This document shows, piece by piece, positions 4,033 to 32,031 of a DNA stretch of 64,000 nucleotides (positions are counted from its first letter, which is position 1; the number at the start of each line of letters is the position of its first letter). The notes under the pieces are model-generated. The model worked only from the letters and a program-made list of their open reading frames with translations, was not told where the DNA came from and made no database searches. The position numbers and the translations under genes were made by a program. The stretch comes from a virus, in the IMG/VR virus record IMGVR_UViG_3300042311_000920, positions 1 to 64,000 of that record; one strand, 5' to 3'.

Positions 4033-4038
4033 AAGTTT

Positions 4039-4308: not shown

Positions 4309-4312
4309 GGTT

Positions 4313-4606: not shown

Positions 4607-4612
4607 TGTATT

Positions 4613-6038: not shown

Positions 6039-6050
6039 TTTATTTATAAG

Positions 6051-9894: not shown

Positions 9895-9903
9895 TTACTA
9901 ACC

Positions 9904-9927
9904 AACCGCCTCACAAGGGTGGTTTTT
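9904..9927 (+). terminator. Intrinsic terminator
   Basis: AACCGCC/GGTGGTT stem followed by a T-run. Confidence 0.55.
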
Positions 9928-10122
9928 AATTTCAAAACATAATGACAAATTTAAACGGATTTTTTTACTGGTTTATCAGTTTAGGCGGAGATACTGCCAA
10001 AGCCAATTTCAAAGAGGTACACGACAACGTTAACGCGATTAGCTTACAATTTAGCACGCTGAAAAATAGAGCTGCAGAAATCAAAGAAAAGTACAATTAT
10101 AAATTTATAAAAAACTAAAACC

Positions 10123-10365
10123 ATGAAAACAAGATACCTCATTTTAGCATTTTTAGGCGTTTTAATAGCTTCTTATTTATTCCTTCGCATTATTTGTAAT
10201 TCTATAGAAATATATGAATTAAAACAAAAAATAGCACTAATTGAAAGAGTTGATTATTTGATGATTGAGGAGGGATATACTAGAGACGCGGCCGAGCACA
10301 TCGCAAAAGTAGAATTAAAAATAATTCCAGAGGATGCTGAGTATATAGCGTTAATGGAAGATTAA
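10123..10365 (+). CDS. Hypothetical membrane-anchored protein
   Basis: N-terminal hydrophobic helix. Confidence 0.55.
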   Translation: MKTRYLILAFLGVLIASYLFLRIICNSIEIYELKQKIALIERVDYLMIEEGYTRDAAEHIAKVELKIIPEDAEYIALMED

Positions 10366-10487
10366 AAAAAAGCCGTTCGCTAAAGGCGTGAAATTCGATT
10401 TTAAAACGGCACAAATTTTTTTATTATATTTACAAACATTATTCATTTTACGGACGAGCCGACCGAGACAAACGGGCAATTATTATC

Positions 10488-11129
10488 ATGGTTTACAATA
10501 TCAACAAAAAAGGGTACATTTTGAACAATCGCGGGCAAATTGAAACAATTAGTTACAGAGATTATTTGCAGGAATTTGGAAGCGACGAAACAACAACACC
10601 AAGAGGTGTTGCGCCTAGGTTATACGTTGCAGGAAATACGATAATGACATGGGGCGTTCGCGGAAATAACCATGCTTTTTATGCTAGTTTTGCAAACAAA
10701 AGAGAAGCAATAGCAAGTCTTTACGAAATTTGGGAAAGAAACATTGATCAAGAATGCAATGTGCGAAGATTTTACGGAACCAAGAAAGAAATGTTTCAAC
10801 ACCTTGCGGATGTTTACGAAAAAGAAACAGCAGTAATAAAACGATATTTTAGACTGCAAAAATTCAACCTTGAAAGAGCGCAACAAGCAAAAATAAAACA
10901 CGACAACCGCCCGAGCTTCACAAAGGAAATGATGATTAATTTTATTAATCAAAACAAGGAAATAGTACTTTCTTCACTTAAAGAATTAGACGAGCTAAAA
11001 CAAGCCGAAAACAAGGAAATTTGGCAAGTAAAAGCAAATTCGTTAATTCAGAAAGTCAGTAACAACGACTTTAGAGTTTTGAACTGGAAAGAAATTTATA
11101 GTTTAATTCGAGAAAGTGCAAATTTGTAA
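10488..11129 (+). CDS. Hypothetical protein
   Basis: 213-aa ORF. Confidence 0.65.
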   Translation: MVYNINKKGYILNNRGQIETISYRDYLQEFGSDETTTPRGVAPRLYVAGNTIMTWGVRGNNHAFYASFANKREAIASLYEIWERNIDQECNVRRFYGTKKEMFQHLADVYEKETAVIKRYFRLQKFNLERAQQAKIKHDNRPSFTKEMMINFINQNKEIVLSSLKELDELKQAENKEIWQVKANSLIQKVSNNDFRVLNWKEIYSLIRESANL

Positions 11130-11152
11130 GCAAATATTTTTTTTAATCACAT

Positions 11153-11179
11153 AAACCGCTAGAAATAGCGGTTTTTTTT
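11153..11179 (+). terminator. Intrinsic terminator
   Basis: AAACCGCTA-GAAA-TAGCGGTTT followed by a T-run. Confidence 0.8.
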
Positions 11180-11249
11180 GTTGCAAAATTTCAAAAAGAA
11201 ACAATGCCCAAAACGGGAATTCTATTTTAATCAATTATAAATTTTAAAA

Positions 11250-11525
11250 ATGAAAAACGCAGAATTAATGAATTTATCAATCGAAGAATTGAGAGATTTA
11301 AACACAAGACTTATTGAAGTCTTGAAACTTAAAAAACAAACTATTGCTTTTGTTAATAAGGAAACACTAACAAAAGGAATGATTGCTGAATATGTAGGAA
11401 CTTCTACTAATGTTCGGTATAAAGAGTTTGAGATTGTAAAAATCAATAGAACGAAAGCTGAGTGTAAGTGTGTGGTAACTGGTAAACTTTGGAATATCCA
11501 AATAGCAAACTTAAAACCATCATAG
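11250..11525 (+). CDS. Hypothetical protein
   Basis: 91-aa ORF. Confidence 0.55.
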   Translation: MKNAELMNLSIEELRDLNTRLIEVLKLKKQTIAFVNKETLTKGMIAEYVGTSTNVRYKEFEIVKINRTKAECKCVVTGKLWNIQIANLKPS

Positions 11526-11539
11526 TTAATTTTTATTTT

Positions 11540-11872
11540 ATGGACACAGCGACCAAACCCCAAGCCATTCAGTACAGTTTGGCTTTTTTTGACCCTCCAG
11601 ACGCTCCGGACCGTGATCAAATTTTAACAAGCAAAGCCAACGCATTGCTCGAAGCTCTCAACGACGGACTAAAAACGAAAGATCACTATTTACCACAATA
11701 CACTTATCAAGAAGGAAATTTTATTATGCTAATCGCTTGCAACAAAGAAAAAGATATTATGCATAATATTCTGGACGTGGACGGAAATACACCGCCCGGA
11801 ATGTCCGCTTGTTGGAGAAATGCGTCACAAATCAAGCAAGATTTAAAAGAATTACAAATGCTTAACACCTAA
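11540..11872 (+). CDS. Hypothetical protein
   Basis: ORF, start moved to the ATG at 11540. Confidence 0.5.
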   Translation: MDTATKPQAIQYSLAFFDPPDAPDRDQILTSKANALLEALNDGLKTKDHYLPQYTYQEGNFIMLIACNKEKDIMHNILDVDGNTPPGMSACWRNASQIKQDLKELQMLNT

Positions 11873-11974
11873 ACCATGAAACGAATCATTTTAGAAAAGC
11901 CGATTATCATCGAGGCACGTTACGAAACTTATTTTCAAATCAATTTTTATTTAAACTAATCATTTTTTACAATC

Positions 11975-12430
11975 ATGAAAAAACTTTTTTTATTACTGTT
12001 ATTGCCTACTTTGGCAATTTCTCAAAACGTTGGAATCGGAACGAAAAACCCAACGGCTAAACTAGAAGTTAATGGAAACGTAAAACTAAAAGCGTCAATA
12101 GGTACGGTAAACGATACTATTTTAGTTATTCGAAATGGCGAAATAATGAAAGTGCCTGCATCTTTTTATCAATACACACCGCCTACAAATTGCCCCTTAC
12201 TCGTTACGGGTCAAGGTCAAAGTAATGGTTACTATTTGAAATTTCAATCAAACGTCCCAATTGTTAACCCAAGCGCTACACTCGTAATTCAGGGCAAAAC
12301 TTTTCAAGCAGCGGGAACGTGGGTAAGTAGCAATACCTACTTCTACTCTTACACTAATACGAGTGGTTCTCCTTTAAATATTAACCAGCCTTTTACCGTT
12401 AATTTTACGGGGCAAATTTGTCAGTATTAA
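11975..12430 (+). CDS. Secreted protein with a Bacteroidota VGIGT-type motif
   Basis: Signal peptide, then QNVGIGTKNPTAKLEVNG. Its TAA is the TAAC at which cassette array 1 begins. Confidence 0.65.
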   Translation: MKKLFLLLLLPTLAISQNVGIGTKNPTAKLEVNGNVKLKASIGTVNDTILVIRNGEIMKVPASFYQYTPPTNCPLLVTGQGQSNGYYLKFQSNVPIVNPSATLVIQGKTFQAAGTWVSSNTYFYSYTNTSGSPLNINQPFTVNFTGQICQY

Positions 12431-12557
12431 CAGCAAAGTATATAAGCAGTAGCGGAGTGAGTAGCACAGCACGTAAGAGGGAAGGCTGGAATTTCAAATG
12501 TGCATTGTCATTTCGGTATAACCAAGCCCCGCCCGCTATTTCTTATATTTATTGTTA
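12428..12557 (+). repeat. att-like hairpin site 1
   Basis: TAAC..TATAAGCAGTAGCGG / CCGCTATTTCTTATA..TGTTA. Confidence 0.65.
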
Positions 12558-12645
12558 TAAAATCCTTTTAATGTTTTACAACGTTTGGTGCTTTCTGTCT
12601 GTAGCGGATTTCAGCACCAAGCCATTAAAACACAAAACCAAAATT

Positions 12646-12873
12646 ATGGAATCACTTGAAAAATTTATAGAAAAAAGAATGCAACAATCGGAATTTTCAG
12701 CAATGATGATCCCTAGATATTTAGAAAAGCCAAATGCTTTTTTAGGTTCAAAAAATTACACTTTGGAAAAAGCGGCAGAATTTAAAGCAGATGCTGAGAA
12801 ATGCAAAGCATTAATGATGTTTTTAAAAGAATATAATAAACTTTTGAAAACCAAGCGTAACAATGGAAACTAA
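12646..12873 (+). CDS. Cassette hypothetical protein
   Basis: MESLEKFIEK..., TAA overlaps the next TAAC. Confidence 0.55.
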   Translation: MESLEKFIEKRMQQSEFSAMMIPRYLEKPNAFLGSKNYTLEKAAEFKADAEKCKALMMFLKEYNKLLKTKRNNGN

Positions 12874-12986
12874 CGTTGAATTATTGTCGTCAGGTGGCGA
12901 CAAACACAAAACAAAATATAAAAATGAAAGTAATGACAAAACATTCAGAGAATACCCAAACCGCCACTTGCGACAATAATTTGTTA
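12871..12986 (+). repeat. att-like hairpin site
   Basis: TAAC GTTG AATTATTGTCGTCAGGTGGCG / CGCCACTTGCGACAATAATT TGTTA. Confidence 0.8.
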
Positions 12987-13256
12987 GTAGATTATCATCC
13001 TTTTGACCTTAAGCCTCAACATAGAGATTTAGGAGGAAAAATACCTTTTGTTCATAATAAGACAGGTTTTACAGAATTGTATCCAAAAGCTTATAGTTAT
13101 CCGGCCAAAAGATGCGAAAATTGCTTGTTTTATAGAGTAGAGAGAAGTACTACTCCTGTTGCTTACTATTGTCGAATTGGTATGTTTTCAAGTTATGTAC
13201 AGGCAACCGCAAAAAGAGATGAAGACAAACCAACTGAATGTCAGGTTTATTGGTAA
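12924..13256 (+). CDS. Cassette hypothetical protein (CxxC)
   Basis: ATG inside the hairpin; cassette ends GTTAGTAGAT / ATCTACTAAC. Confidence 0.55.
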   Translation: MKVMTKHSENTQTATCDNNLLVDYHPFDLKPQHRDLGGKIPFVHNKTGFTELYPKAYSYPAKRCENCLFYRVERSTTPVAYYCRIGMFSSYVQATAKRDEDKPTECQVYW

Positions 13257-13263
13257 TATCTAC

Positions 13264-13390
13264 TAACGGATTGCGGTTTTGTCTTGTTGCCGAAAATACA
13301 AGACCAATTTTAATTTAAAAAACTATGAATACAAGTACAAAAAATTCATCAAATGAAGCCGAAAATGGCAATAAGTCAAAACCGCTGTTA
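13264..13390 (+). repeat. att-like hairpin site
   Basis: TAAC GGATT GCGGTTTTGTCTTGTTGCC / GGCAATAAGTCAAAACCGC T GTTA. Confidence 0.85.
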
Positions 13391-13558
13391 TATGATGGCA
13401 TTTTCGTAGGGCAGAAAGTTATTGATGAAGATTGCGATAAAGGAACGATAACAGAAATAGAAAATATCTACAATGTTTATGTAAAATATGATAATGGCGG
13501 AAGTGGTATTTCTTGTTTAAATGGTTGTTGCAACGACAGGTTGTATGCTATCATATAA
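13325..13558 (+). CDS. Cassette hypothetical protein
   Basis: ATG inside the hairpin; cassette ends GTTATATGATGGCAT / ATGCTATCATATAAC. Confidence 0.55.
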   Translation: MNTSTKNSSNEAENGNKSKPLLYDGIFVGQKVIDEDCDKGTITEIENIYNVYVKYDNGGSGISCLNGCCNDRLYAII

Positions 13559-13643
13559 CGTTTTCGGGCTTGGCGAAGTGCCGCTAACCGAAACTTAATT
13601 TTTAGCACTAACTGTCCTGCGGCATTTTGCCAAACCCGTGTTA
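13556..13643 (+). repeat. att-like hairpin site
   Basis: TAAC GTTTT CGGGCTTGGCGAAGTGCCGC / GCGGCATTTTGCCAAACCCG T GTTA. Confidence 0.85.
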
Positions 13644-13694
13644 TGGGATAGTTTTAAAAACCTTTTAGGGTGGGCATTTAAAAACAAAATTAAA

Positions 13695-14090
13695 ATGGGA
13701 ATGTACACAGAATTAATTTTTGGTGCTGAATTAAAAAAAGACACACCAAACCAAGTAATTGAAGCCTTGAAATATATGATAGGTGAAACAAAAGAAAAGC
13801 CAAGTGATTTCCCGTTACCTGATGGAAGATGTGAATGGTTATTTCAAGGCGGTAGCTATTACTTCGCTATCAATAATTCAGTAACAAAAATGTGGCTTGA
13901 TGATATTGATAAGCAATGGCATATTAGCACACGTTCAAATATTAAGAATTACGAAAGTGAAATTGAAACATTTTTAGACTGGATAAAGCCATACATTGAC
14001 GGTGGTTCTGGTGGTAGAGATTTATATGCCATTACCATTTATGAAGAACAAGACACACCAACTCTTTATTATTTGCACGATGCTGATTAG
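13695..14090 (+). CDS. Cassette hypothetical protein
   Basis: MGMYTELIFG..., flanked by a terminal inverted repeat of about 26 bp. Confidence 0.65.
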   Translation: MGMYTELIFGAELKKDTPNQVIEALKYMIGETKEKPSDFPLPDGRCEWLFQGGSYYFAINNSVTKMWLDDIDKQWHISTRSNIKNYESEIETFLDWIKPYIDGGSGGRDLYAITIYEEQDTPTLYYLHDAD

Positions 14091-14126
14091 TACGGTGCGG
14101 TGGGAAAAGGTTTTTAAAATTTCCCA

Positions 14127-14194
14127 TAACGTTTTGCAGATACACGCTGTGAGCGTTGAATTGAGGGAGGGGAAATAGCGTGTATCTGCTGTTA
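14127..14194 (+). repeat. att-like hairpin site
   Basis: TAAC GTTTT GCAGATACACGCT / AGCGTGTATCTGC T GTTA. Confidence 0.85.
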
Positions 14195-14234
14195 TGCCTT
14201 CGTTGCGGATTATTAACTTAAAAACTAAAATATA

Positions 14235-14561
14235 ATGGATAAATTTCCAAAATTCATCATAGAAGATGATAAATTAATACTAATGAAAGTAACATATCAT
14301 AAAGAGATTGCTACTGATTTAACTAAAGTAAAAGGCGGTGGTTGGTTTAAATATTTGCAACATACCGATATGTTTGTTTTTAGCGGAGAAAGCCACGATT
14401 TTGGCAAAGCTAAATTTGAAGATATAAAACAATGTGTTGCAAATTGCCAAGTATATTCAGATAACCGCCTTTACCGAAATATCAGTAATAATCACAATTT
14501 TGGATATGATACAGGAACAGAAATTATCGAATTGAAAACGGAATGTAGCAATGAGGCATAA
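14235..14561 (+). CDS. Cassette hypothetical protein
   Basis: Cassette ends GTTATGCCT / AGGCATAAC. Confidence 0.65.
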   Translation: MDKFPKFIIEDDKLILMKVTYHKEIATDLTKVKGGGWFKYLQHTDMFVFSGESHDFGKAKFEDIKQCVANCQVYSDNRLYRNISNNHNFGYDTGTEIIELKTECSNEA

Positions 14562-14686
14562 CGTTTTGCAGCTATATGTCTGTTGCCAAAAGTAAAAAAC
14601 AATGCTTCGATTAAGCACAAATAATCACAAGTACAAAACAAATTATAAATCAAGCCGAATGTGGCAATAAGTCAAAACCGCTGTTA
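14559..14686 (+). repeat. att-like hairpin site with mismatched (chimeric) arms
   Basis: Left arm GCAGCTATATGTCTGTTGCC, right arm GGCAATAAGTCAAAACCGC. Confidence 0.7.
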
Positions 14687-14700
14687 TAAGTAGTACGGAT

Positions 14701-14841
14701 ATGAAAATCACAAAAGAATTTTTAGAAAAAATAAAAAAAGAAAACAATATATTGATATTTAAACTAGCGTCGATTGAGGGTAAAATACCAAAAGAAATAC
14801 AAGACACATTACCTAAAGAAGTAATTACAAACAGATTGTAG
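14701..14841 (+). CDS. Cassette small protein (46 aa)
   Basis: MKITKEFLEKIKKENNILIF... fills the unit GTTATAAGTAGTAC / GTATTACTTATAAC. Confidence 0.5.
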   Translation: MKITKEFLEKIKKENNILIFKLASIEGKIPKEIQDTLPKEVITNRL

Positions 14842-14850
14842 TATTACTTA

Positions 14851-14942
14851 TAACGTTTTGCAGGTAGGCGATAGTGCCGCTTACCACAAACTTTAAATCA
14901 AAGCACTCAGGCTCATAGCGGCATTTTGCCTACCTGCTGTTA
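14851..14942 (+). repeat. att-like hairpin site
   Basis: TAAC GTTTT GCAGGTAGGCGATAGTGCCGCT / AGCGGCATTTTGCCTACCTGC T GTTA. Confidence 0.85.
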
Positions 14943-14996
14943 GGTGTCTGTAAAAAATAAATTTAGCGTGGGCTTAAACTTTAAATAACAAACAAA

Positions 14997-15482
14997 ATGG
15001 AATTACAAGAATTAATTGAAAAGAACAAACTGCAATTACGCACACAAGAAGATATTTCTGCAAAGTTTGACGAATTGCAAAATTCAGGTGGCTTTATGGA
15101 TTTTCGACCAGAAGTATTGATTAACTTTTTATCATTTGAAAACGCAAAGCCACATTTGAAAGAAGACTACGTGAAAGAAGTTGAAGCAGGAACAAAGCAA
15201 TGGGAGCAACATACTACGGTTGAAAAGGCTGCCGAAGAGTTTTTGGACTATATGAAATTTGCTTGGGGTAAAGCCGAAGATGAACGTGGAATTTCAGCAA
15301 GCCGTTCAGTTCAAAAACTAGGAATGTGGCTTTGGATTATGAACCGAGATGATTTGCGTAGAGTTATTGAGGATGATGATTTGTACAATCCTTATGGCGC
15401 ACCTGCTTTAATTGAAGTTTGCAATCAAATGGGTATAAAAGTTCCAAACTCATTAATCGAATTTGCTAAGATAAAATGCTAA
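14997..15482 (+). CDS. Cassette hypothetical protein
   Basis: 161 aa; cassette ends GTTAGGTG / CACCTAAC. Confidence 0.65.
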   Translation: MELQELIEKNKLQLRTQEDISAKFDELQNSGGFMDFRPEVLINFLSFENAKPHLKEDYVKEVEAGTKQWEQHTTVEKAAEEFLDYMKFAWGKAEDERGISASRSVQKLGMWLWIMNRDDLRRVIEDDDLYNPYGAPALIEVCNQMGIKVPNSLIEFAKIKC

Positions 15483-15522
15483 TTATGTTGGGTGCGGTGG
15501 GAAATTTATTTTTTATTGCACC

Positions 15523-15649
15523 TAACATTCTCGTGGCTTTGTCTTGTTGCCGAAAATACAAGACCAACTTTAAATTTATCACTATGAAAAATGACACAAA
15601 ACCAGCATTACCCGAAGCCGAAAACGGCAATAAGTCAAAACCACTGTTA
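15523..15649 (+). repeat. att-like hairpin site (same family as 13264)
   Basis: GTGGCTTTGTCTTGTTGCCG / CGGCAATAAGTCAAAACCAC T GTTA. Confidence 0.85.
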
Positions 15650-16021
15650 CAAGCAGTGTTTTTCGCTCCTTATTTGCCTTATTCGGTAAAAATAGCTTAT
15701 GATTATTTTGGAGATACACAAGAAATAGCAACATTAATAGGTGTTGAAGATAGAAATGGAGAAACTAGATTGCAAATTAATACTGGCGGAAGTGCTTTGT
15801 TAAAATATTGCAAACTTGTTTTAAAACCTTTTTCAGATTATACTGAAATATTAGAAATAACAGATGAAATGAATGATTATGAAATCCAAATGATTGAAGA
15901 TAATCCTGATTTAATAAAACGACTACCTTATGATGTGGTTGAAAAAATGTTTAAAAATCACATTGATGTTTTCGGACTTATTAATTTCGGTTTAGCCGTT
16001 TCAATTCACGATGTTGTGTAA
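15584..16021 (+). CDS. Cassette hypothetical phage protein
   Basis: ATG inside the hairpin; cassette ends GTTACAAGCAGTGTT / AACATTGCTTGTAAC. Confidence 0.6.
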   Translation: MKNDTKPALPEAENGNKSKPLLQAVFFAPYLPYSVKIAYDYFGDTQEIATLIGVEDRNGETRLQINTGGSALLKYCKLVLKPFSDYTEILEITDEMNDYEIQMIEDNPDLIKRLPYDVVEKMFKNHIDVFGLINFGLAVSIHDVV

Positions 16022-16030
16022 CATTGCTTG

Positions 16031-16159
16031 TAACGTTCCGCAACTACACGTCTGTTGCGTAAAAGTACAAAATTACCTTTCAGTTTAACACGGAATTGAA
16101 AGGTACAAAAACATCACTAAATTAATCACAAATCTAGCAATAGCGTGTAATTGCTGTTA
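16031..16159 (+). repeat. att-like hairpin site
   Basis: GCAACTACACGTCTGTTGC / GCAATAGCGTGTAATTGC T GTTA. Confidence 0.8.
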
Positions 16160-16174
16160 TCAAATCGGTTTATT

Positions 16175-16501
16175 ATGAAAAGATTACCTGTTATACACGA
16201 TGTAAAAGTTTGGAGTAGATTTTGGCAAAATCTAACTATCGAAGAAAAAAACTTTGAATTAAGAAAATTAGATAGAGATTATCAAGTAAATGATTATTTA
16301 CGATTGAATTTCTATTCAGAAGATTTAAAAGAAATTATAGAAACTGAAAAGCCTAAAATTGCTAAAATTCAATACATTTTAAAAGATGCTGAAATGTTTG
16401 GATTGCAAAAAGATTACGGAATATTATCCTTAAAATATTATAGTTCTTTTTCTTTTCAAGAAAGGGTAGAGTTTTTGAAAACGCAAACCCAAACTGTTTG
16501 A
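16175..16501 (+). CDS. Cassette DUF3850/ASCH-like protein
   Basis: HDVK...KNFELRKLDRDYQVNDYLRL motif. Confidence 0.7.
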   Translation: MKRLPVIHDVKVWSRFWQNLTIEEKNFELRKLDRDYQVNDYLRLNFYSEDLKEIIETEKPKIAKIQYILKDAEMFGLQKDYGILSLKYYSSFSFQERVEFLKTQTQTV

Positions 16502-16627
16502 TAACGGCTACGCATATACGCAGTAGCGGATTTAAAACACAAAAGTTTAATTAACAAATAAAAGTAAAATAGAATGAAAAAGTTTAAAATTAGCACAGTA
16601 GCCGCTATTGCCGTATATGCGATGTTA
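16502..16627 (+). repeat. att-like hairpin site
   Basis: CGCATATACGCAGTAGCGG / CCGCTATTGCCGTATATGCG AT GTTA. Confidence 0.85.
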
Positions 16628-16915
16628 GCGGTTGTTTTTACTTCTTGTGATGATGCAGGGGTAACTTCAAAAAGATTAAATGGCGATGAACAAAATTTGC
16701 CTGATGAACTGAAAGGACTAAAAATTTATTCAGTTTCGACAGGTAATGGGAATTATGTAAAAGTTGCCGTTTTAGACGGTAAGATAAACTCAACAACTTA
16801 CCAAGTAGGTAAAGTTCAAGAATCGACAGTAATAGTAAATAAACAAAACGGCAAACTTATAGAGGTTAGCCAAATTTTGGTTGAAAACGACAGCGTGATT
16901 GTCTGCCGAAAATAA
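16574..16915 (+). CDS. Cassette lipoprotein
   Basis: MKKFKISTVAAIAVYAMLAVVFTSC lipoprotein signal. Confidence 0.65.
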   Translation: MKKFKISTVAAIAVYAMLAVVFTSCDDAGVTSKRLNGDEQNLPDELKGLKIYSVSTGNGNYVKVAVLDGKINSTTYQVGKVQESTVIVNKQNGKLIEVSQILVENDSVIVCRK

Positions 16916-16919
16916 CCGC

Positions 16920-17038
16920 TAACGGTTCTCGGCTTTGTCGTCGTTGCGACTTATGAAAACTAATATTAATATTTTAAACTAAACGAAATGAAAAACGATA
17001 ATTCAACTAAACAAAGCAATGCGTCAAAACCGATGTTA
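16920..17038 (+). repeat. att-like hairpin site
   Basis: TCGGCTTTGTCGTCGTTGC / GCAATGCGTCAAAACCGA T GTTA. Confidence 0.8.
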
Positions 17039-17272
17039 GCGGAAGGCTGGATTTCTGTTAACGATAGAAGACCAAATGAAAATCAAACAGTATGGTGTTA
17101 TTCAGAAAACACATTTAACATATTTGTAGGAGTTTATATTTACCTTACAAATGAAGGTTGGTTTTGGGCTTCAAGTAACGGTTGCTTTTATATTGAAGAG
17201 GGAAAAATAATAACAGAATGTGAGATTGATGATTTTGATGTTACACATTGGTTTCCCGCTCCAGTTCTGTAG
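16988..17272 (+). CDS. Cassette DUF551-like protein
   Basis: WISVNDRRP...VTHW motif; ATG inside the hairpin. Confidence 0.7.
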   Translation: MKNDNSTKQSNASKPMLAEGWISVNDRRPNENQTVWCYSENTFNIFVGVYIYLTNEGWFWASSNGCFYIEEGKIITECEIDDFDVTHWFPAPVL

Positions 17273-17280
17273 CTTTCCGC

Positions 17281-17407
17281 TAACGTTTCTCGGCTTTGCT
17301 TTGTTGCGGAAAAGTAAGCCAAAACTTTAGATTTAAAAACAAAATTAACAAATACAAACCAAACATTCAGTTAAGCCTAAAACCGCAATAGAGCAAAACC
17401 GATGTTA
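17281..17407 (+). repeat. att-like hairpin site
   Basis: TCGGCTTTGCTTTGTTGCGG / CCGCAATAGAGCAAAACCGA T GTTA. Confidence 0.85.
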
Positions 17408-17499
17408 TAAGTAGCTTTTATTATGGATGAAATAATTTTATGTTTAGGAATGATTGTTGGATTAATATTATTTATAATTAGTATAAAACAAGAGTAAAA

Positions 17500-17772
17500 A
17501 TGGAAAGTAAAATAGAATATTTTAATAGATACAGTGATACGCATTTGCCTGATAAAATGAATAGATGGGCAAGAATAGCTGTATTTAAAAACATTAGAAT
17601 TGCTTGGATAAGTAAACATAAGATTAAAGAGCAAGATACATTTTGTGTAACGTGCCATTTTCCAACTATGCAAAATGATACAGCAAACGAAAGTAAAGTT
17701 TTCTTTAGTTTAGAAGATGCAAAAGATTTTGTTTCTGAAAGATGGAATTTTTTTTTAACCGCAGTTTCTTAA
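17500..17772 (+). CDS. Cassette hypothetical protein
   Basis: 90 aa, preceded in the same unit by a 24-codon hydrophobic ORF at 17423-17497. Confidence 0.6.
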   Translation: MESKIEYFNRYSDTHLPDKMNRWARIAVFKNIRIAWISKHKIKEQDTFCVTCHFPTMQNDTANESKVFFSLEDAKDFVSERWNFFLTAVS

Positions 17773-17781
17773 AGTTACTTA

Positions 17782-17854
17782 TAACGTTCCCACGATAGGG
17801 GCTGTTTGCCTATTTACAAAGTTGCTTTCGGCAAATAGCACTTATCGTGTGTTG
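17782..17854 (+). repeat. att-like hairpin site
   Basis: CACGATAGGGGCTGTTTGCC / GGCAAATAGCACTTATCGTG T GTTG. Confidence 0.85.
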
Positions 17855-17903
17855 TGCGATGGTGCTTTTAAATACAAATATTAACCAATTAAATTACAAT
17901 AAA

Positions 17904-18119
17904 ATGTCAAAACGAAAATACTCAAAAATGTCGGACAAAGTTGAAATAACACATTATGAATGTACTAATAGAAAGTGCAAGTGGCAAGGAACTAATAAAC
18001 AAAAAGGAACTCAATATTTAGATAATGGATTTACGGAATTGATTTGCCCTAAATGCTGTAATAATGAATTTTACGGATTACTTCCGTCTTATGTAGATTC
18101 TATTTCTGCGGTTTCGTAG
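17904..18119 (+). CDS. Cassette zinc-ribbon-like protein
   Basis: CxxxxC...CPKC; cassette ends GTTGTGCGA / TCGCACAAC. Confidence 0.55.
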   Translation: MSKRKYSKMSDKVEITHYECTNRKCKWQGTNKQKGTQYLDNGFTELICPKCCNNEFYGLLPSYVDSISAVS

Positions 18120-18128
18120 CATCTCGCA

Positions 18129-18254
18129 CAACGTATCGGTGCTATACGATGTGGCGGATTTTCGGCAGAAAGCCCAATACGAAGCACCACAGTTGAATTA
18201 AATAAAAATGTTTAATCGAAGCACGTCAGCCGCCATATTGTATAGCACTTGTTA
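18129..18254 (+). repeat. att-like hairpin site
   Basis: CAAC GTATC GGTGCTATACGATGTGGCGG / CCGCCATATTGTATAGCACT T GTTA. Confidence 0.85.
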
Positions 18255-18285
18255 GCGGATGCCGTTTCTTCACAACAATTTTAAA

Positions 18286-18522
18286 ATGGAATATAAAGCA
18301 CAAGAACTCAAAAAAGATTTAATAACAAAGCGTTGCATTGATAACGATATGACAATGGATGAAGCCTGTAAAGAAATAGGAATTTCAAAAGCCACTTTGT
18401 CAAGGTTGGAAAAGTCTAAACTGCCAGATGTTGAAACATTAGGTAAGGTTTGCACTTGGTTAGGAACTGAACCAAATAAATACTTTGTCATTATTCGTAA
18501 GCGTCAAGACGGTTTCCGCTAA
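18286..18522 (+). CDS. Cassette XRE-family HTH regulator
   Basis: TMDEACKEIGISKATLSRLEK...PDVETL. Confidence 0.8.
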   Translation: MEYKAQELKKDLITKRCIDNDMTMDEACKEIGISKATLSRLEKSKLPDVETLGKVCTWLGTEPNKYFVIIRKRQDGFR

Positions 18523-18644
18523 CCGTTCGGGGCTTGTAGCAGTAGGGGATTAGAAGCACTACTGTTCAACCTACCACAAAAGCTGATTAGAAGTACACAG
18601 CTTAATTAAAGCACTTCTGCCCCTATTGCTACAAACCCTTGTTA
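18520..18644 (+). repeat. att-like hairpin site
   Basis: GGGCTTGTAGCAGTAGGGG / CCCCTATTGCTACAAACCC TT GTTA. Confidence 0.85.
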
Positions 18645-18694
18645 GCAGAAGTGGCGGTTAATTTACAAGGGTGTCAATTTTAAAACGTAAAAAA

Positions 18695-18997
18695 ATGATT
18701 AAAAATTCAGAACAACCAATCAGTCCAATGCCTTACCAAAATCAAGATGGCTCTATTCAACACGATGTTTATTTTGGATTAACTAAAAGAGAACATATTG
18801 CTATTGAAGCAATGAAGGGCTTTTTAGCAAACCCATCTGAAACAGAAGTAAGTTCAACTTATGTATTGGAAGCAATCGGGTTGCCAAAAGAAACTAAGTA
18901 TTCATTTGATGAGCATTACACAAAGTATGTTTCACAAATAGCAGTCAAATATGCCGATGCCTTATTAAAGGAATTGTCAATCGGAGACGGTCGGTAG
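18695..18997 (+). CDS. Cassette hypothetical phage protein
   Basis: GLTKREHIAIEAMKG...AVKYADALLKEL, a motif common in phage proteins. Confidence 0.65.
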   Translation: MIKNSEQPISPMPYQNQDGSIQHDVYFGLTKREHIAIEAMKGFLANPSETEVSSTYVLEAIGLPKETKYSFDEHYTKYVSQIAVKYADALLKELSIGDGR

Positions 18998-19007
18998 CCA
19001 TTTCTGC

Positions 19008-19131
19008 TAACGGCTACGGCTATGTGCAGTAGCGGATTTAAAACACTAAACTTTAAATATAGAACGAATGATGATAGTAGAACAAATTTTGAATAACGCA
19101 CCGAACCCGCTATTGCATATAGCCGATGTTA
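19008..19131 (+). repeat. att-like hairpin site
   Basis: CGGCTATGTGCAGTAGCGG / CCGCTATTGCATATAGCCG AT GTTA. Confidence 0.85.
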
Positions 19132-19859
19132 GTGGCGGTGCTTTGTTCAATGCTGATTGTATGGATATTTTACCTCTTATTCCTAATAAATCGGTTCAAC
19201 TTATTTTGGCTGATTTGCCTTACGGAACAACAAGTTGTGCGTGGGATTGTATTATTCCATTTGACAAACTTTGGGCTGAATATGGTAGAATAATAAAAGA
19301 CAATGGTGCAATAGTTTTAACGGCTTCACAACCATTTACAAGTGCCTTAGTAAACAGTAAAATTGAATGGTTTAAATATGCTTTAGTTTGGGAAAAAGAA
19401 AGACCAAGCAACCCTGCACACGCAAAGATTAGATTTATGAAATGGCACGAAGATATTTTGATTTTTTCACCTAATAAAGAAAAGTTTAATCCACAAAAAG
19501 AAAAACGATTAGAGCAAAATAAAAGGAATAACAAACAAGGTGTATTTCATAAATCTGATGCTTATGGAGAACAAACAATACCACAAGGCGATGGGATGGC
19601 TGATGAAAAGTATTTGAGTAGCATATTAAAGGTAAATGTTGAAAGAGGGTTGCACCCAACGCAAAAGCCGTTAAAACTATTTAAAACATTGATTAGTGCC
19701 TTTACGGATGAAAATGATTATGTACTTGATAATACAATGGGAGTAGGCACAACTTGTTTAGGAGCAAAAGAGTTGAACCGTTCCTTTATTGGAATTGAAA
19801 AAGAGGTAAAATATTATGATTTGGCAGTTGGTCGGGTGTTCGGTCAGCATTGCCACTAA
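19068..19859 (+). CDS. Cassette beta-class N6A/N4C DNA methyltransferase
   Basis: DLPY, HPTQKP and DNTMGVGTT motifs. Confidence 0.9.
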   Translation: MMIVEQILNNAPNPLLHIADVSGGALFNADCMDILPLIPNKSVQLILADLPYGTTSCAWDCIIPFDKLWAEYGRIIKDNGAIVLTASQPFTSALVNSKIEWFKYALVWEKERPSNPAHAKIRFMKWHEDILIFSPNKEKFNPQKEKRLEQNKRNNKQGVFHKSDAYGEQTIPQGDGMADEKYLSSILKVNVERGLHPTQKPLKLFKTLISAFTDENDYVLDNTMGVGTTCLGAKELNRSFIGIEKEVKYYDLAVGRVFGQHCH

Positions 19860-19943
19860 CGGTTTCGGGCTTGGCGAAGGTGGGCTTGTAGGATGCTCAA
19901 TTTTAGCAGAATGTTTCTGCCCACTTTTGCCAAACCCGTGTTA
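19857..19943 (+). repeat. att-like hairpin site
   Basis: CGGGCTTGGCGAAGGTGGGC / GCCCACTTTTGCCAAACCCG T GTTA. Confidence 0.85.
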
Positions 19944-20013
19944 TGTGTAGTTGCGGTTGTTTATCAGGAACTTAAATTGAAAACGAATAAAAAAGAATTA
20001 GAAAAAAGAAGCG

Positions 20014-20715
20014 ATGGAATTAAATAAAATATATAACGAAGATTGCATTGAAGGTATGAAGAAAATACCATCTGCGAGTATTGATATGGTTCTAACTGAC
20101 CCACCATATACATCTCCAACTGTTCACGCATTCGGAAGGCAAAAAGTAAACCGATTATCAGATTTAGCAATACAAGAATTTTACTTTGCTGAAATCAAAA
20201 AGGAATGGGAACGAATACTGAAACCCAATGCACCTGTTTTGATTTTCTGCGATGATATTTATAGTGCTGTTTTGATGGGTTTGTTTTACGAATGGCAACA
20301 AAAGAATTTAGTTATTTGGGATAAGGGTAGAATTGGAATGGGAAACCCGTTTAGAAAACAGCACGAACTTGTATTTTATGCAAACAGAGGAAGTATTGAA
20401 TTGAATAAAACCAATATGAGCCACATTCCTACTGTAATAAAAGAAACGCTAACAAAAGAACATCACGGAGCAGAAAAGCCAGTAAAACTATTGATGAAAC
20501 TGATTGACGGACTTACAAAAGAAAATGCAACAGTTTTGGATTGCTTTATGGGAAGTGGCTCAACTGCGATTGCTTGTTTAGAAACGAAAAGAAACTATAT
20601 CGGTTTTGAACTTGATAAAAGCTATTATGAAACTTCACAAAATCGTATTTCTTCCTTGTGCGGTGGGCTTTTTTCTAATTCTTTTTCAACGGAAAGTTCA
20701 ATTGAAACGGGATGA
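20014..20715 (+). CDS. Cassette beta-class N6A/N4C DNA methyltransferase
   Basis: DPPY, HGAEKP and DCFMGSGST motifs. Confidence 0.9.
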   Translation: MELNKIYNEDCIEGMKKIPSASIDMVLTDPPYTSPTVHAFGRQKVNRLSDLAIQEFYFAEIKKEWERILKPNAPVLIFCDDIYSAVLMGLFYEWQQKNLVIWDKGRIGMGNPFRKQHELVFYANRGSIELNKTNMSHIPTVIKETLTKEHHGAEKPVKLLMKLIDGLTKENATVLDCFMGSGSTAIACLETKRNYIGFELDKSYYETSQNRISSLCGGLFSNSFSTESSIETG

Positions 20716-20728
20716 TAGCAATTACACA

Positions 20729-20777
20729 TAACGTTTTGCAGATTGGCGGTCGTTTTAATGCCGCCAATGTGCTGTTA
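20729..20777 (+). repeat. Minimal att-like hairpin site (49 bp)
   Basis: TAAC GTTTT GCAGATTGGCGG / CCGCCAATGTGC T GTTA. Confidence 0.8.
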
Positions 20778-20839
20778 CAGGTAGTAGGGATTTCTACCAC
20801 AAAACTTAATTAGAAGTACAAACAAAAAAGAATTTAAAA

Positions 20840-21715
20840 ATGAGCGAGGGCAAAAAAAGAAAAATTAAAGTATTATCATTATTCGATGGTATGAGTTGCG
20901 GACAAATAGCTTTAAACAAGCAAGGGATTGAATATGATGAATATTTTGCTTCTGAAATTGACAAAGAAGCTATAAAGGTAACTATGAAAAACTACCCAAA
21001 CACAAAACAATTAGGTAGTATTACGGAACTAAAAGGAATTGATTTGCCAAAAATAGATTTGCTATTTGGCGGAAGCCCTTGTCAAAGTTTTAGTAGAGCA
21101 GGAGATAACAGTGGATTTGACGGAAGTAGTAAATTGTTTTGGGAATTTGTAAGAGTTTTGAATGAAGTAGAACCTACTTACTTTTTACTTGAAAATGTAA
21201 TTATGAAAAAAGAATGGGAAGATGTAATTACGGAAGCGTTAGGAGTGAAACCTATTGAGATTACAAGTGCTAAATTTGTACCACAAGCAAGACGAAGATT
21301 ATATTGGACTAATATACCCAATGTAACGCAACCGAAACAATCTGAATACACTGTTTTAGACTTTATTGATGGTGATGGGTTTCCGACAAGTTGCGGAATT
21401 GATAGAGTTTTTAAACGCAAAGAAATATTTAATACTTTGACGGCAACTTATTGGAAAGGAATTAGAGGAAGTTCAAGACCAGCAGTAAGTATTAGAGAAG
21501 GATTTTTAGATGCGGACAGAGAAGCACACCGTATGCTAACACCAACAGAATGTGAACGACTACAAACAGTACCTATTGGATATACGGATTGTGTTGCTAA
21601 AACAAATAGATATAAGATGCTTGGTAATGGTTGGACAGTTGATGTGATTGCTCATATTTTTTCTTTTTTAAAGGAGGGGAAATTTTTAAATTCTTTTTCT
21701 GACGAAAATGTTTAA
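20840..21715 (+). CDS. Cassette C5-cytosine DNA methyltransferase
   Basis: LFDGMSCG, GGSPCQSFS, ENV, QARRRLYW, ECERLQ and LGNGW motifs. Confidence 0.9.
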   Translation: MSEGKKRKIKVLSLFDGMSCGQIALNKQGIEYDEYFASEIDKEAIKVTMKNYPNTKQLGSITELKGIDLPKIDLLFGGSPCQSFSRAGDNSGFDGSSKLFWEFVRVLNEVEPTYFLLENVIMKKEWEDVITEALGVKPIEITSAKFVPQARRRLYWTNIPNVTQPKQSEYTVLDFIDGDGFPTSCGIDRVFKRKEIFNTLTATYWKGIRGSSRPAVSIREGFLDADREAHRMLTPTECERLQTVPIGYTDCVAKTNRYKMLGNGWTVDVIAHIFSFLKEGKFLNSFSDENV

Positions 21716-21741
21716 TCAAAGCACTTCACCGCTATTACCTG

Positions 21742-21861
21742 TAACGGTTCTCGGCTTGGCGAAGTTGCCGAACACAAAACTTCATTAGAATTACAAATGT
21801 TTAAATCAAAGATAGAATGTCAAACGAAGCACAAAACGGCAATTTTGCCAAACCGATGTTA
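21742..21861 (+). repeat. att-like hairpin site
   Basis: TCGGCTTGGCGAAGTTGCCG / CGGCAATTTTGCCAAACCGA T GTTA. Confidence 0.85.
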
Positions 21862-22461
21862 GCACCAGTACGGGTTTTAAATCTATACGCTGGAATTGGA
21901 GGAAACCGAAAACATTGGGAAAATGTAGAAGTAACTGCAATAGAATACAACGAAGAAATTGCAAATGTTTACAAGAAATTACATCCAAACGATAATGTGA
22001 TAGTTACTGATGCACACGATTATTTGGCTAAAAATTGGAGAGAGTTTGATTTTATATGGAGTTCGCCACCATGTCAAAGTCATAGCAAAGTAAGAATGAT
22101 GGCAAGTAAAAGCGGAAGTTATGATGCTGTAATGCCTGATATGAAATTGTGGAGTGAAATAATTTTTTTACAGAACTTTACTAAAAACACAGATATAAAG
22201 TTTGTAGTTGAAAATGTAAAGCCTTATTACGAACCATTTGTAAAACCAACTGCAAAACTTGGTAGGCATTTATTTTGGGCAAACTTTGAAATACCTGAAG
22301 CCGAAATAAAAGATGGATTAACCCACAATGAAAGAGGAAGTTCTGAAAAAGGTTATTTTGACTTACGAGAATATAAAATAAAACACAGAAAAGACCAAAT
22401 AATTCGTAATTGCGTTGACCCAAATGTAGGACAATATGTTCTCGGTTGTGCAGTTTCGTAG
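21817..22461 (+). CDS. Cassette short C5-methyltransferase-like protein
   Basis: LYAGIGG, SPPCQ and ENV motifs; ATG inside the hairpin. Confidence 0.8.
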   Translation: MSNEAQNGNFAKPMLAPVRVLNLYAGIGGNRKHWENVEVTAIEYNEEIANVYKKLHPNDNVIVTDAHDYLAKNWREFDFIWSSPPCQSHSKVRMMASKSGSYDAVMPDMKLWSEIIFLQNFTKNTDIKFVVENVKPYYEPFVKPTAKLGRHLFWANFEIPEAEIKDGLTHNERGSSEKGYFDLREYKIKHRKDQIIRNCVDPNVGQYVLGCAVS

Positions 22462-22470: not shown

Positions 22471-22494
22471 TAACTAATCGCTAATCGCTATAAA
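22471..22494. other. Conserved array-terminal site (attI-like candidate)
   Basis: TAACTAATCGCTAATCGCTATAAA, 20/24 identical to 34783-34806. Confidence 0.6.
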
Positions 22495-23471: not shown

Positions 23472-24770
23472 ATGGCAACAATTAAATTTACCGTGCGAGG
23501 GAAGAAAAACCCGTCGCCCATCTACATCCGTTTTGCAGAGGGAAAAAATATAGACCTTCACGAAAAATCTGGACTTTATGTAAATCCAATTTTTTGGGAC
23601 CAGAAAAAGCAACAGATCCGGAAAGTTCTCGAAGTAGCAAACAAAGACGATATCAATTCCAATCTTCGGAAACTTGAAATTTATTTGATTGATGAATTTA
23701 ATCAATCATTTATGACCGGCCAAGTAATAAATAAGCAATGGCTGTTGCAATCTATCCAAAAATTCTTTAATCGCCCTAAAAACGAAGAAAAACTACAAAA
23801 TTTAAAGCATCACATTTATTTTTCAGATTACGCCCAACACTGGATTGATAACAAGGCTAAAAAATTCAAAGTTGCCGCCAATAAATATATGGACGAAACA
23901 ACGATAGGACATTATCAGCAAGTTTTGGATAACTTCAAAGATTTCGAAGGAAAAAACAAAGTAAAACTATGCGATTTAAGCAACTTAAAATTAGACGAGT
24001 TCTCTTTATACCTTTCAGATACTAAAAGCTATTCAGAATCTACTAGCAAGCGTAAAGTTGGACGCGTTAAGTTCTTTTGCGCACGTGCCGAAAGCGACAA
24101 TTTAGAAGTCAACAAACAATACAAAGAAAGAGTTTTCGTCAAAGAGCAAGAAATCGAATACAAGCAGCCTTATTTAAACGAAGATGAAATTAACAACATT
24201 TTTAAATTGAAACTAGAACCTAATTGTCCAATGGATCATGTTCGAGATAATTTAATAATTGGATTATGGACTGGCTTAAGGGTGTCAGACTTTCTAACGA
24301 GATTAAACGTCTCCAATATTCAAGATGGTTTTATCAAAATAAAAACAATGAAAACAAAAACATTTGTCAATATTCCGATACACTCACAAGTAGCTTTTAT
24401 TTTGAATAAAAGAAACGGACAACTACCTAATAAAATATCAGAGCAAAAGTTTAACGACCACATAAAAACCTTGACGCAGATAGTAGGTATTGATGATTTA
24501 ATGATTGGAGGAGTGATGAAAGTTGACGAAAAAACTAAAGTTAAAAGGAAAGTAATTGATACATATAAAAAGTGGGAGTTAATGACCTCTCACGTTGGGC
24601 GCAGATCATTTGCTACAAATTTGTTCGGAAAAGTATCTAATAAAACCATTTGTGACGTATGCGGCTGGTCAAATGAAGATATGCTTTTTGCTTACAACAA
24701 AACCACGAACATGGAATCAGCGAATGTACTTAAGGATTACTGGGATAAAAAATACGAATCAAAAATATAA
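23472..24770 (+). CDS. int: Tyrosine recombinase/integrase of Bacteroidota type (arm-binding, SAM-like and catalytic domains)
   Basis: TGLRVSD (R), KTMKT (K), SHVGRRSFAT (HxxR), CGWS (W), FAY (Y). Confidence 0.9.
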   Translation: MATIKFTVRGKKNPSPIYIRFAEGKNIDLHEKSGLYVNPIFWDQKKQQIRKVLEVANKDDINSNLRKLEIYLIDEFNQSFMTGQVINKQWLLQSIQKFFNRPKNEEKLQNLKHHIYFSDYAQHWIDNKAKKFKVAANKYMDETTIGHYQQVLDNFKDFEGKNKVKLCDLSNLKLDEFSLYLSDTKSYSESTSKRKVGRVKFFCARAESDNLEVNKQYKERVFVKEQEIEYKQPYLNEDEINNIFKLKLEPNCPMDHVRDNLIIGLWTGLRVSDFLTRLNVSNIQDGFIKIKTMKTKTFVNIPIHSQVAFILNKRNGQLPNKISEQKFNDHIKTLTQIVGIDDLMIGGVMKVDEKTKVKRKVIDTYKKWELMTSHVGRRSFATNLFGKVSNKTICDVCGWSNEDMLFAYNKTTNMESANVLKDYWDKKYESKI

Positions 24771-32025: not shown

Positions 32026-32031
32026 CGGCTA

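Follow-up and report, generated by a model that had tools for sequence, protein, structure and literature searches.

How integron cassettes form, with a single open reading frame (ORF) fused to a recombination site and hardly any superfluous nucleotides left between them, is named as an outstanding question in passages of PMC8618304, where integrons in Bacteroidota are also reported; the locus described here bears on this question. The DNA analysed, referred to below as the window, is a stretch of 64,000 nucleotides (nt) comprising the first 64 kb of a 73,439-bp IMG/VR virus record (IMGVR_UViG_3300042311_000920) that is rated complete by CheckV. Four genes in the window (units 1–4) are each enclosed by an AT-rich inverted repeat bordered on the gene side by G-rich motifs (G-boxes), and these units are part of a long array of hairpins. 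A first-pass annotation, based upon the letters alone, had suggested that the nested repeats are a footprint of cassette genesis, left when genes were captured by a second mechanism into the loop of a pre-existing att-like hairpin. The reading that we favour, and to which we assign a probability of about 60%, is that units 1–4 belong, as cassettes, to an integron-like array carried by the phage, and that their nested repeat forms the outer of three tiers of a folded, attC-like site.

The array (positions 12425–21864, + strand) consists of 19 hairpins of 55–138 nt with xTAAC...GTTAx cores, between which lie 18 cassettes; a 19th cassette ends at TAAC 22471–22474 and is followed by non-hairpin sequence. 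Strict hairpin scans gave only 1–2 sites and the array was revealed by relaxed scans. The AAC...GTT cores are present in all 19 hairpins, the minimum free energies of which, calculated with DNA parameters, range from −9 to −22.5 kcal/mol; an Rfam scan of the whole window matched no family. All ORFs between the hairpins are on the + strand, and the cargo is comprised of small phage proteins of unknown function, one helix-turn-helix regulator and DNA methylases.

If a cassette is taken to begin with the G of GTTA and to finish with the C of the TAAC that follows, the terminal 10–15 nt at its two ends are mutually complementary in 17 of the 18 cassettes, with at least 8 contiguous Watson–Crick pairs, and in an 18 × 18 matrix of duplex energies the cognate end was the best partner for 13 of them. 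The strongest end duplexes of the array, with energies of −20 to −32 kcal/mol, are those of units 1–4 and of cassette 16; for the four units, the mean with non-cognate ends is −8 to −10 kcal/mol. Over the first 15 end positions, the 18 cassettes contain 220 Watson–Crick pairs, 18 G.T pairs that form on the sense strand only, two A.C pairs and 30 other mismatches, and position 11 after GTT is a G.T pair in 12 cassettes (numbers 3, 6, 8, and 10–18). Paired ends of this kind are a signature of integron cassettes, where the bases past the crossover core belong to the neighbouring cassette. A CAGTAG/CTATTG pairing with a G.T also recurs inside the hairpins at 16499 and 19005. Additionally, a methylase cassette (ORF 19068–19859) without G-boxes has an end duplex of −26.1 kcal/mol, the second strongest in the array, and contains in the coding ends of its ORF an inverted repeat of 18 bp, perfect but for a single mismatch (ATATTTTACCTCTTATTC / GAAAAAGAGGTAAAATAT), the coordinates of which (19164–19181 and 19797–19814) were derived from offsets.

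The anatomy of the four units, all on the + strand, is as follows. Unit 1 (cassette 13640–14130) is preceded by a hairpin at 13553–13646. Its 5′ adapter (13640–13694) contains the core and outer stem (13640–13648), the left arm of the inner repeat (13652–13666), the G-box AGGGTGGGC (13667–13675) and an A-rich leader that extends to the ATG at 13695; the ORF (13695–14090; 131 amino acids, phrog_4334) occupies what we consider a swappable slot, and the 3′ adapter (14094–14130) consists of the G-box GGTGCGGTGGG (14094–14104), the right arm (14105–14119) and the outer stem with TAAC (14122–14130). Unit 2 (14939–15526) follows a hairpin at 14848–14945 and is made up of an outer stem (14939–14946 and 15519–15526), inner arms (14952–14964 and 15502–15514), the G-boxes AGCGTGGGC (14965–14973) and GGTGCGGTGGG (15491–15501), and an ORF at 14997–15482 (phrog_5706). 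In unit 3 (19940–20732), the outer stem (19940–19954 and 20718–20732) is separated by a bubble that holds a loop motif from the left inner arm (19990–20008), which is followed by the ATG-containing G-box AGCGATGG (20010–20017); its N6/N4 DNA methylase ORF (20014–20715) reads through both the 3′ G-box TGCGGTGGG (20659–20667) and the right arm (20668–20686). Unit 4 (20774–21745) has an outer stem (20774–20787 and 21732–21745), a loop-motif bubble on each side, inner arms (20825–20841, the last bases of which are the ATG, and 21682–21698), the G-boxes GAGCGAGGGC (20842–20851) and GGAGGGG (21673–21679), and a C5 DNA methylase ORF (20840–21715).

All eight G-rich motifs reported in the first-pass annotation are thus in place, and each adjoins an arm of the inner repeat on the gene side, as it had described. 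The inner repeats, which are 13–19 bp long, lie beyond the outer stem, directly past it in units 1 and 2 and after a bubble of ~30 nt in units 3 and 4, and each is an outward extension of that stem. As both G-boxes of a unit are on the + strand, they are direct repeats and unable to pair with each other. The suggestion that the flanks of unit 4 resemble hairpin interiors was borne out: in local alignments, the left flank scored 21 against the hairpin at 18517 (shuffle mean 7.9) and the right flank 23 against that at 18126, scores reached by none of 500 shuffles in either case. Both flanks also match the hairpins at 16499, 19005, 21739, and 14848, and hence the bubbles of this unit are part of a recurrent loop motif. 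A TGATTAG stop-codon cluster located just 5′ of several 3′ G-boxes closes two reading frames, not three.

Inverted repeats around a gene with short direct repeats beside them could also be produced by a small transposon or a miniature inverted-repeat transposable element, in which the inner repeats would be terminal inverted repeats and the G-boxes target-site duplications. However, in such elements the repeats should be conserved and the duplications variable, whereas here the repeats differ and the supposed duplications are conserved between units, and the direct repeats lie inside rather than outside of the inverted repeats. As no transposase was detected among 20 phage ORFs scanned against Pfam, and the anatomy contradicts this explanation, we regard it as highly improbable.

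The exact motif GCGGTGGG is found three times in the window, in all cases on the + strand and at 3′ borders of the flagged units, whereas only 0.26 occurrences are expected from a first-order Markov model of both strands (Poisson P for at least three, 0.0024). Looser forms of the motifs are not enriched across the window (15 versus 9.2 expected with one mismatch, and 41 versus 48 with two). With the exact motif confined to the borders and its loose versions unenriched, the signal is positional, and the association of nested repeats with G-boxes is real and not due to chance. In a larger set consisting of 16 distinct AT-rich inner repeats from the window and other viral contigs, a few of which (loci L002 and L047) were first found by means of a pattern containing the G motif, a 9-mer with at least five G residues was present at 9 of 16 5′ borders and 10 of 16 3′ borders, compared with a background of 2.2% of the 9-mers in the array region. 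For seven repeats that are not AT-rich, a G-rich border 9-mer was seen once per side. The 16 inner repeats differ in sequence, while their complementarity is kept. In seven additional cassettes from other contigs, G-boxes are likewise direct repeats just inside both arms, and the same build with other repeat sequences is seen in loci L002, L120, L130, L132 (twice), L133, and L138.

A G-rich motif of 8 nt that is present in one orientation at recombination borders could also be a Chi-like hotspot of the host, which focuses homologous exchange at the cassette borders. This possibility seems very remote, as there are only three copies of GCGGTGGG in the phage window, and a comparison of its frequency with that of the reversed letters in five Bacteroidota genomes (20/59, 38/38, 8/48, 19/33, and 154/167) revealed no excess, although this test is indirect as the actual host may differ. 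The Chi-like explanation was rejected on this basis.

In other contigs, the same flanks surround different ORFs. A scan of IMG/VR with the junction between the hairpin at 13553 and the start of unit 1 identified 32 contigs, 26 of which hold a complete cassette beginning with GTTATGGGA, and the proteins of these cassettes fall into 19 clusters (no blastp match at E < 1e-3). The unit 1 adapter is present nearly letter for letter in 20 cassettes, including that of the window, around 15 unrelated ORF clusters. When one representative per ORF is considered, conservation of 80–100% is seen over the first ~43 nt of the adapter cassette, which span core, outer stem, inner repeat, G-box, and CATTTAAA, and over its final ~38 nt, where G-box, inner repeat, outer stem, and core follow one another; the interior is not conserved. 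The ATG is located 52–58 nt past the G of GTTA. In 13 of 15 cases the stop codon lies 0–9 nt 5′ of the 3′ G-box, and in the other two the ORF crosses the box and stops within the repeat. The conservation ends ~15–25 nt ahead of the ATG and ~0–12 nt from the stop codon, and the G-boxes do mark the border, as initially proposed, where the conserved flank ends and the variable gene begins. A scan with the 3′ part of unit 1 gave 17 contigs, of which 15 were already in the junction set and one represented the other end of a known contig; locus L149 carries this 3′ adapter but has an ordinary promoter region upstream. A Bacteroidetes-type promoter (TTTG-N19-TAGTTTTA), noted by eye over the 3′ arm of the hairpin and the unit 1 adapter, was discarded, as it fails for units 2 and 3.

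Similar results were obtained for unit 2, the adapter of which was found in nine further contigs, and nine complete cassettes (window included) hold nine unrelated ORFs. A scan for the unit 3 adapter gave eight matches, three of which were in unrelated contexts; of the five true ones, four hold the same methylase. A frame similar to the unit 4 adapter was seen once (L138). The pattern GTGCGGTGGG..TAAC proved too unspecific in IMG/VR (118 stretches), and inspection of its loci with a GC content below 0.42 led to about five related-looking ones (L002, L046, L047, L049, and L091). An empty frame of unit 1 (frame 1a) was not found in IMG/VR, where 17 filled copies match by their 3′ part, and the empty frames 1a and that of unit 2 were absent from metagenome contigs, a weak negative in view of the lack of a positive control in that collection. 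Among the loci seen, the closest to an empty adapter cassette is a 134-nt cassette at L129 1387–1520, which has a 14-bp outer stem and G-rich boxes near both ends and lacks a long ORF of its own.

The separate histories of gene and flanks are also apparent when the gene is followed instead of the adapter. Relatives of the unit 1 ORF were found in 23 viral loci, and their flanks were read for 100 nt upstream and 95 nt downstream. In 18 of these, the homolog is part of an ordinary operon without hairpins and lacks the flanks; the finding that the first-pass annotation had named as a refutation, non-cassette homologs with the same flanks, was therefore not made. Of the remaining relatives, those in L262 (79% identical) and L263–L265 (72–73%) are in TAAC/GTTA-ended cassettes without an inner repeat or G-box, whereas in L269, located on the same contig as L123, the unit 1 adapter is shared and the protein is 60% identical to that of the window. 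The closest protein relative is thus found in a different frame, and the identical frame around a distant relative. Further, the metagenome runs that hold this stretch are lake-water samples according to their run labels, and contigs from other lake runs contain joins of 13670 to 14092 (in two runs) and of 13682 to 14084 (in two runs), in which the adapter is kept and the ORF is replaced; other joints in these runs keep just the ends of cassettes 3, 12, and 13, or swap hairpin loops.

These results can be accommodated by a model in which a cassette starts just past a GTTA core and ends at a TAAC core, with its two ends complementary to each other. The outer stem, of 10–15 bp in most cassettes, is extended in four units by the second, AT-rich stem, and once the ends meet, whether through circularisation or because distant parts of the sense strand pair, the core hairpin, outer stem and inner repeat would stack as one long hairpin. 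The joined ends would then run from the stop codon through the G-box, the inner-repeat and outer-stem arms and TAAC into the hairpin, and from there through GTTA, the second outer-stem and inner-repeat arms and the second G-box to the leader and ATG, which makes the inner repeat the outermost tier and the two G-boxes its unpaired base. The adapter, consisting of the hairpin, a 5′ part (stem, G-box, and A-rich leader) and a 3′ part (G-box and stem), would move as one module, with the hairpin upstream of its own gene and the space between the G-boxes serving as a slot for unrelated ORFs. The anatomy, the persistence of the adapters around unrelated ORFs, the association of adapters with the hairpin upstream (see below) and the absence of the flanks from non-cassette homologs were observed, and to these the model adds three steps: cassettes may move by site-specific recombination at the TAAC/GTTA core of a folded sense strand, slot ORFs may be exchanged between co-infecting phages by recombination inside identical adapters, and a new ORF may first be loaded through a join beside the G-boxes. 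As the G-boxes are shared by different adapters and are similar to the G-rich apex found in hairpin 5′ arms (e.g., AAGGTGGGC at 19877–19885), they can be read as working parts of the site, and we infer that they are protein-binding or stem-limiting elements and not scars.

The model of the first-pass annotation differs in that an empty GTTA...TAAC hairpin with a G-rich loop would have existed first, and a second site-specific mechanism would have inserted gene circles with the G-box as the crossover core. Such insertion should leave both junctions marked by a copy of the box, the two copies pointing the same way, and this is indeed the arrangement in units 1–4 and the seven further cassettes. 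The gene junctions within ~0–12 nt of the boxes, the joints at the boxes in the lake metagenomes, the likeness of the unit 4 flanks to two halves of a hairpin loop and the 134-nt cassette of L129, with G-boxes at both ends and no long ORF, also agree with it. The same applies to the hairpin at 14124–14197, the loop of which (14151–14172) does have the sequence reported earlier, GAGCGTTGAATTGAGGGAGGGG, with two G-rich stretches 7 nt apart; no relatives of this loop and 3′ arm, which had been put forward as the gene-less version, were found. Against this model stand the missing empty frames noted above (none of frame 1a in IMG/VR, and none of frames 1a and unit 2 in the metagenomes, where a positive control was lacking) and the failure to detect an HUH nuclease or a second recombinase among the 20 phage ORFs in the Pfam scan. 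Moreover, boxes from the same unit resemble each other no more closely than do boxes from different units; they look like conserved adapter parts and not like a one-off footprint. Lastly, paired ends are general to the cassettes, and so the outer hairpin needs no separate origin: what was taken for a pre-existing att-like hairpin around the gene corresponds to the cassette's own two ends. The earlier interpretation is borne out in part: the nested layer does represent a real second level of modularity, as claimed, whereas capture into a loop by a second mechanism appears rather unlikely.

The assignment of hairpins to genes differs from that in classical integrons, where attC follows its ORF, the crossover takes place at G|TT of the 3′ box, and the bottom strand folds and recombines. 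In the cassettes described here, the adapters and slots go with the hairpin that precedes them, not with the one that follows: 16 of 19 cassettes carrying the unit 1 adapter, and 8 of 10 carrying that of unit 2, have an upstream hairpin with the same interior, the sequence 5′ of this hairpin's TAAC varies, and nearly all continuations past the cassette's own TAAC differ, even when the ORF is the same. One contig joins 13554 to 14558 within the shared sequence ATAACGTTTT. In four long hairpins (~125–133 nt; 13261–13393, 15520–15652, 16917–17041, and 21739–21864), the loop contains a start codon (at 13325, 15584, 16988, and 21817), from which the ORF continues across the 3′ arm and past GTTA into the cassette, and several proteins hence share hairpin-encoded N-termini (..NGNKSKPLL.. 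or ..KPML..). In place of the bottom strand, it is the sense strand that is more stable in 17 of 19 hairpins with DNA parameters, and the wobble pairs of the cassette ends are biased in the same direction (18 versus 2). In view of the upstream linkage, the joint in ATAACGTTTT, the end of the array at a TAAC, the start codons in loops and the sense-strand bias, we think it fairly likely, though well short of certain, that the module is a hairpin together with its downstream gene, with crossover at TAA|C.

The same features invite an explanation at the RNA level, in which the hairpins and long-range stems would be processing sites, stabilisers or insulators of translation starts in an early polycistronic mRNA, and shuffling would result incidentally from homologous recombination between conserved motifs, a mechanism that has been put forward for the promoter early stem-loops (PeSLs) of T4-type phages. 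The wobble pairs are nearly all G.T on the sense strand, which is also the strand that folds better; A-rich leaders and start codons are located in hairpin loops and adapters, all genes of the array are on one strand, and conserved motifs flanking swapped ORFs are the pattern described for PeSLs (PMC2839356 and PMC4122927). However, homologous recombination does not produce cassette-specific ends that are complementary to each other, the breakpoints are exactly at the TAAC/GTTA cores, these cores match the RYYYAAC/GTTRRRY boxes of integrons, and the same hairpins are found in a bacterium near an Xer/IntI-like recombinase and a group II intron reverse transcriptase gene. An RNA element as the sole explanation is thus doubtful, but RNA and DNA roles may coexist.

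A tyrosine recombinase gene (23472–24770, + strand), which is located 1 kb 3′ of the array, encodes a Bacteroidetes-type enzyme with Arm-DNA-bind_5, SAM_5, and Phage_integrase domains, and is not IntI. In a tblastn search of 38 loci with this recombinase, only Cellulophaga phage phi18:3 matched, a result of little weight as most of the loci are short fragments. The gene order in phi18:3 is the same, with two or three such hairpins (14717–16465) followed by gp037 at 16945. In addition, the gp032 C5 methylase cassette of this phage (L001) has an 11-bp inner repeat (AAAAAAGGGCG / CGCCCTTTTTT) beside the outer stem, with arms within 14842–14870 and 15990–16016 and GTGAGCG 5′ of the 3′ arm.

Related hairpins are also present in bacteria. 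The hairpin consensus was found in 111 stretches of bacterial genomes, mostly Bacteroidota according to the record labels, of which 86 have the AAC and GTT cores in place; in three of these 86, one of them from a Chryseobacterium isolate, a G-box frame follows. The neighbourhoods that were inspected are mobile-element-like, with methylases and a helicase-methylase fusion. In Pedobacter puniceum (L285; G008:C3:38000-52000; features at 2690–5884, 3600–4571, and 9545–10582) there are three hairpins of this family, two of which enclose a gene for a group II intron reverse transcriptase/maturase; on the opposite strand, at a distance of 4 kb, is a recombinase resembling XerA and integron integrases, which scored 228.8 bits with NF040815 (cut-off 220) and 205.8 with TIGR02249 (cut-off 265). 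A chromosomal array of at least six hairpins on the minus strand was found in Flavisolibacter (L286; G010:C1:2886000-2902000, 10318–13972), followed 3 kb downstream by a tyrosine recombinase frame interrupted by a TGA.

A number of observations weigh against the integron-like reading, or against parts of it. No recombinase is tied to the array: the phage has no match to IntI (TIGR02249), Phage_integrase found no match in two complete virus records that contain arrays of this kind, and none of five hairpin-bearing bacterial genomes reached the IntI cut-off. ORF swapping is seen for two of the four adapters only; the four best relatives of the unit 3 adapter hold the same methylase. The metagenomic joints come from assembled contigs of other populations and not from reads spanning an excision, so that no recombination event was observed, and the role given to the G-boxes is only presumed. 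With regard to the pairing of hairpin and gene, a leader peptide of the hairpin at 14556 stops right past GTTA and the next cassette uses its own ATG, and therefore a hairpin and its downstream ORF are not always one co-adapted unit; at three or four array starts (L121, L134, L138, and L297) only the 3′ arm of a hairpin precedes GTTA, which is a better fit to the classical G|TT crossover. The sense-strand bias of the wobble pairs fits RNA structure as well as folded DNA.

The sites described here share a number of features with integron attC sites, in which sequence varies, complementarity is kept and the classical box is 7 bp. As in attC, the hairpins are imperfect (55–140 nt), the cores are of the RYYYAAC/GTTRRRY type (with AAC...GTT in all 19 hairpins of this array), and the bases past the core belong to the neighbouring cassette, although the paired stretch is longer here (10–15 bp versus 7 bp). 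As in attC families such as the Vibrio cholerae repeats, one site family surrounds many unrelated, tightly packed ORFs. Unlike attC, the conserved site extends ~35–45 nt past both cores, with an AT-rich stem, G-boxes and a leader; the upstream-hairpin linkage, the sense-strand wobble and the lack of an IntI beside the array are further differences. Clusters of attC sites lacking integrases (CALINs), with 2–4 sites each, have been reported from virulent and temperate phages (Qi et al., 2023; PMC9892861), among them a Polaribacter phage CALIN with two DNA methyltransferase cassettes, one attC of which recombined with attI1 under IntI1. The integrase-less clusters and methylase cassettes in the passages of that work used here resemble the present array, but the latter contains 19 + 4 hairpins, the four additional ones being located downstream (see below). 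The main text of PMC9892861 does not contain the terms Cellulophaga, Flavobacteri, or Bacteroid, and neither nested repeats nor G-boxes nor constant adapters are referred to in its passages considered here.

The PeSLs of T4-type phages (PMC2839356 and PMC4122927), where conserved short motifs flank variable small ORFs in hyperplastic regions and accompany modular shuffling, likewise have conserved flanks around variable ORFs. However, PeSLs are single promoter-terminator motifs of T4-type myoviruses that reportedly act through homologous recombination, whereas the present array is characterised by integron-type cores, cassette-specific complementary ends and a three-tier stem, and is found in a podovirus-like Bacteroidota phage with relatives in Pachyviridae/Baltivirus. 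The joining of an ORF to attC is also addressed by the group IIC-attC intron model (PMC3001079). The reverse transcriptase gene between two family hairpins of P. puniceum recalls this model, but the phage window contains neither an intron nor a reverse transcriptase. The model, moreover, reportedly does not predict adapters on both sides of an ORF. In a limited literature search covering titles and the starts of abstracts, no description of nested repeats, G-boxes or constant adapters around cassettes was found. The present sites can be seen as a variation on the attC/cassette theme, with three tiers, a slot for ORFs inside a constant adapter and, probably, a hairpin upstream of its gene.

The interest of these adapters is that they would show precisely where genes enter and leave. 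Owing to its length and near invariance, the site has borders that can be defined at single-base resolution, and the same gene family is seen in three states, without a cassette, in a plain cassette and in an adapter cassette, with junctions a few bases from two G-rich boxes. Questions such as which enzyme acts, which strand is folded, and whether ORF circles carry one G-box become testable, and the gp032 cassette of phi18:3 is a possible bench system. The observations also show that Bacteroidota phages keep large, exchangeable stores of small genes. More tentatively, and with a probability clearly below that of the favoured reading, these phages might possess a two-level system, in which a mirror-image integron (sense strand folded, crossover at TAA|C, and an upstream hairpin that supplies the leader or start codon) is combined with a G-box-delimited ORF slot in a three-tier adapter, which a dedicated mechanism reloads with single genes from ordinary phage operons. 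If so, the adapters would be cassette genesis caught in the act, and cultured relatives similar to phi18:3 could serve as a test system.

With regard to the phage itself, the large genes on the minus strand match PHROG families of virion structural proteins, and one of these proteins is 43% identical to its counterparts in Cellulophaga phages phi46:3, phi18:3, phi13:2, and phi19:3. The window phage is related to phi18:3, which is classified in Pachyviridae, Baltivirus, and is probably a phage of Flavobacteria-like bacteria; the GC content of the window is 31–37%. The hairpin at 16028–16162 is 90.6% identical over 137 nt (window 16024–16160) to positions 2582–2716 of Flavobacterium phage vB_FspS_snusmum9-1, a segment annotated there under a DNA methyltransferase, which points to hairpin sharing among unrelated phages.

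Upstream of the array, a run of small ORFs (70–127 amino acids) on the minus strand at 2900–6800 shows negative AT skew, and a hairpin scan detected no hairpins of the array type in it. Downstream, four further hairpins of the same kind (31621, 32165, 32554, and 34028; 31621–34159, + strand) adjoin two more DNA methylase genes. In total, there are six DNA methyltransferase genes, at 19068–19859, 20014–20715, 20840–21715, 21817–22461, 33188–34021, and 34111–34785, each of which follows a hairpin; three are of the N6/N4 and three of the C5 type, and two of them are short. Judging from their families, they probably constitute an exchangeable anti-restriction store that counters host restriction. 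The Pfam scan of 20 phage ORFs also detected an antirepressor, two further methylases and two HNH/NUMOD4/AP2 endonucleases, the latter corresponding to the adjacent genes at 35246–36025 and 36025–36561, which, with their NUMOD4, HNH_3, and AP2 domains, look like homing endonucleases.

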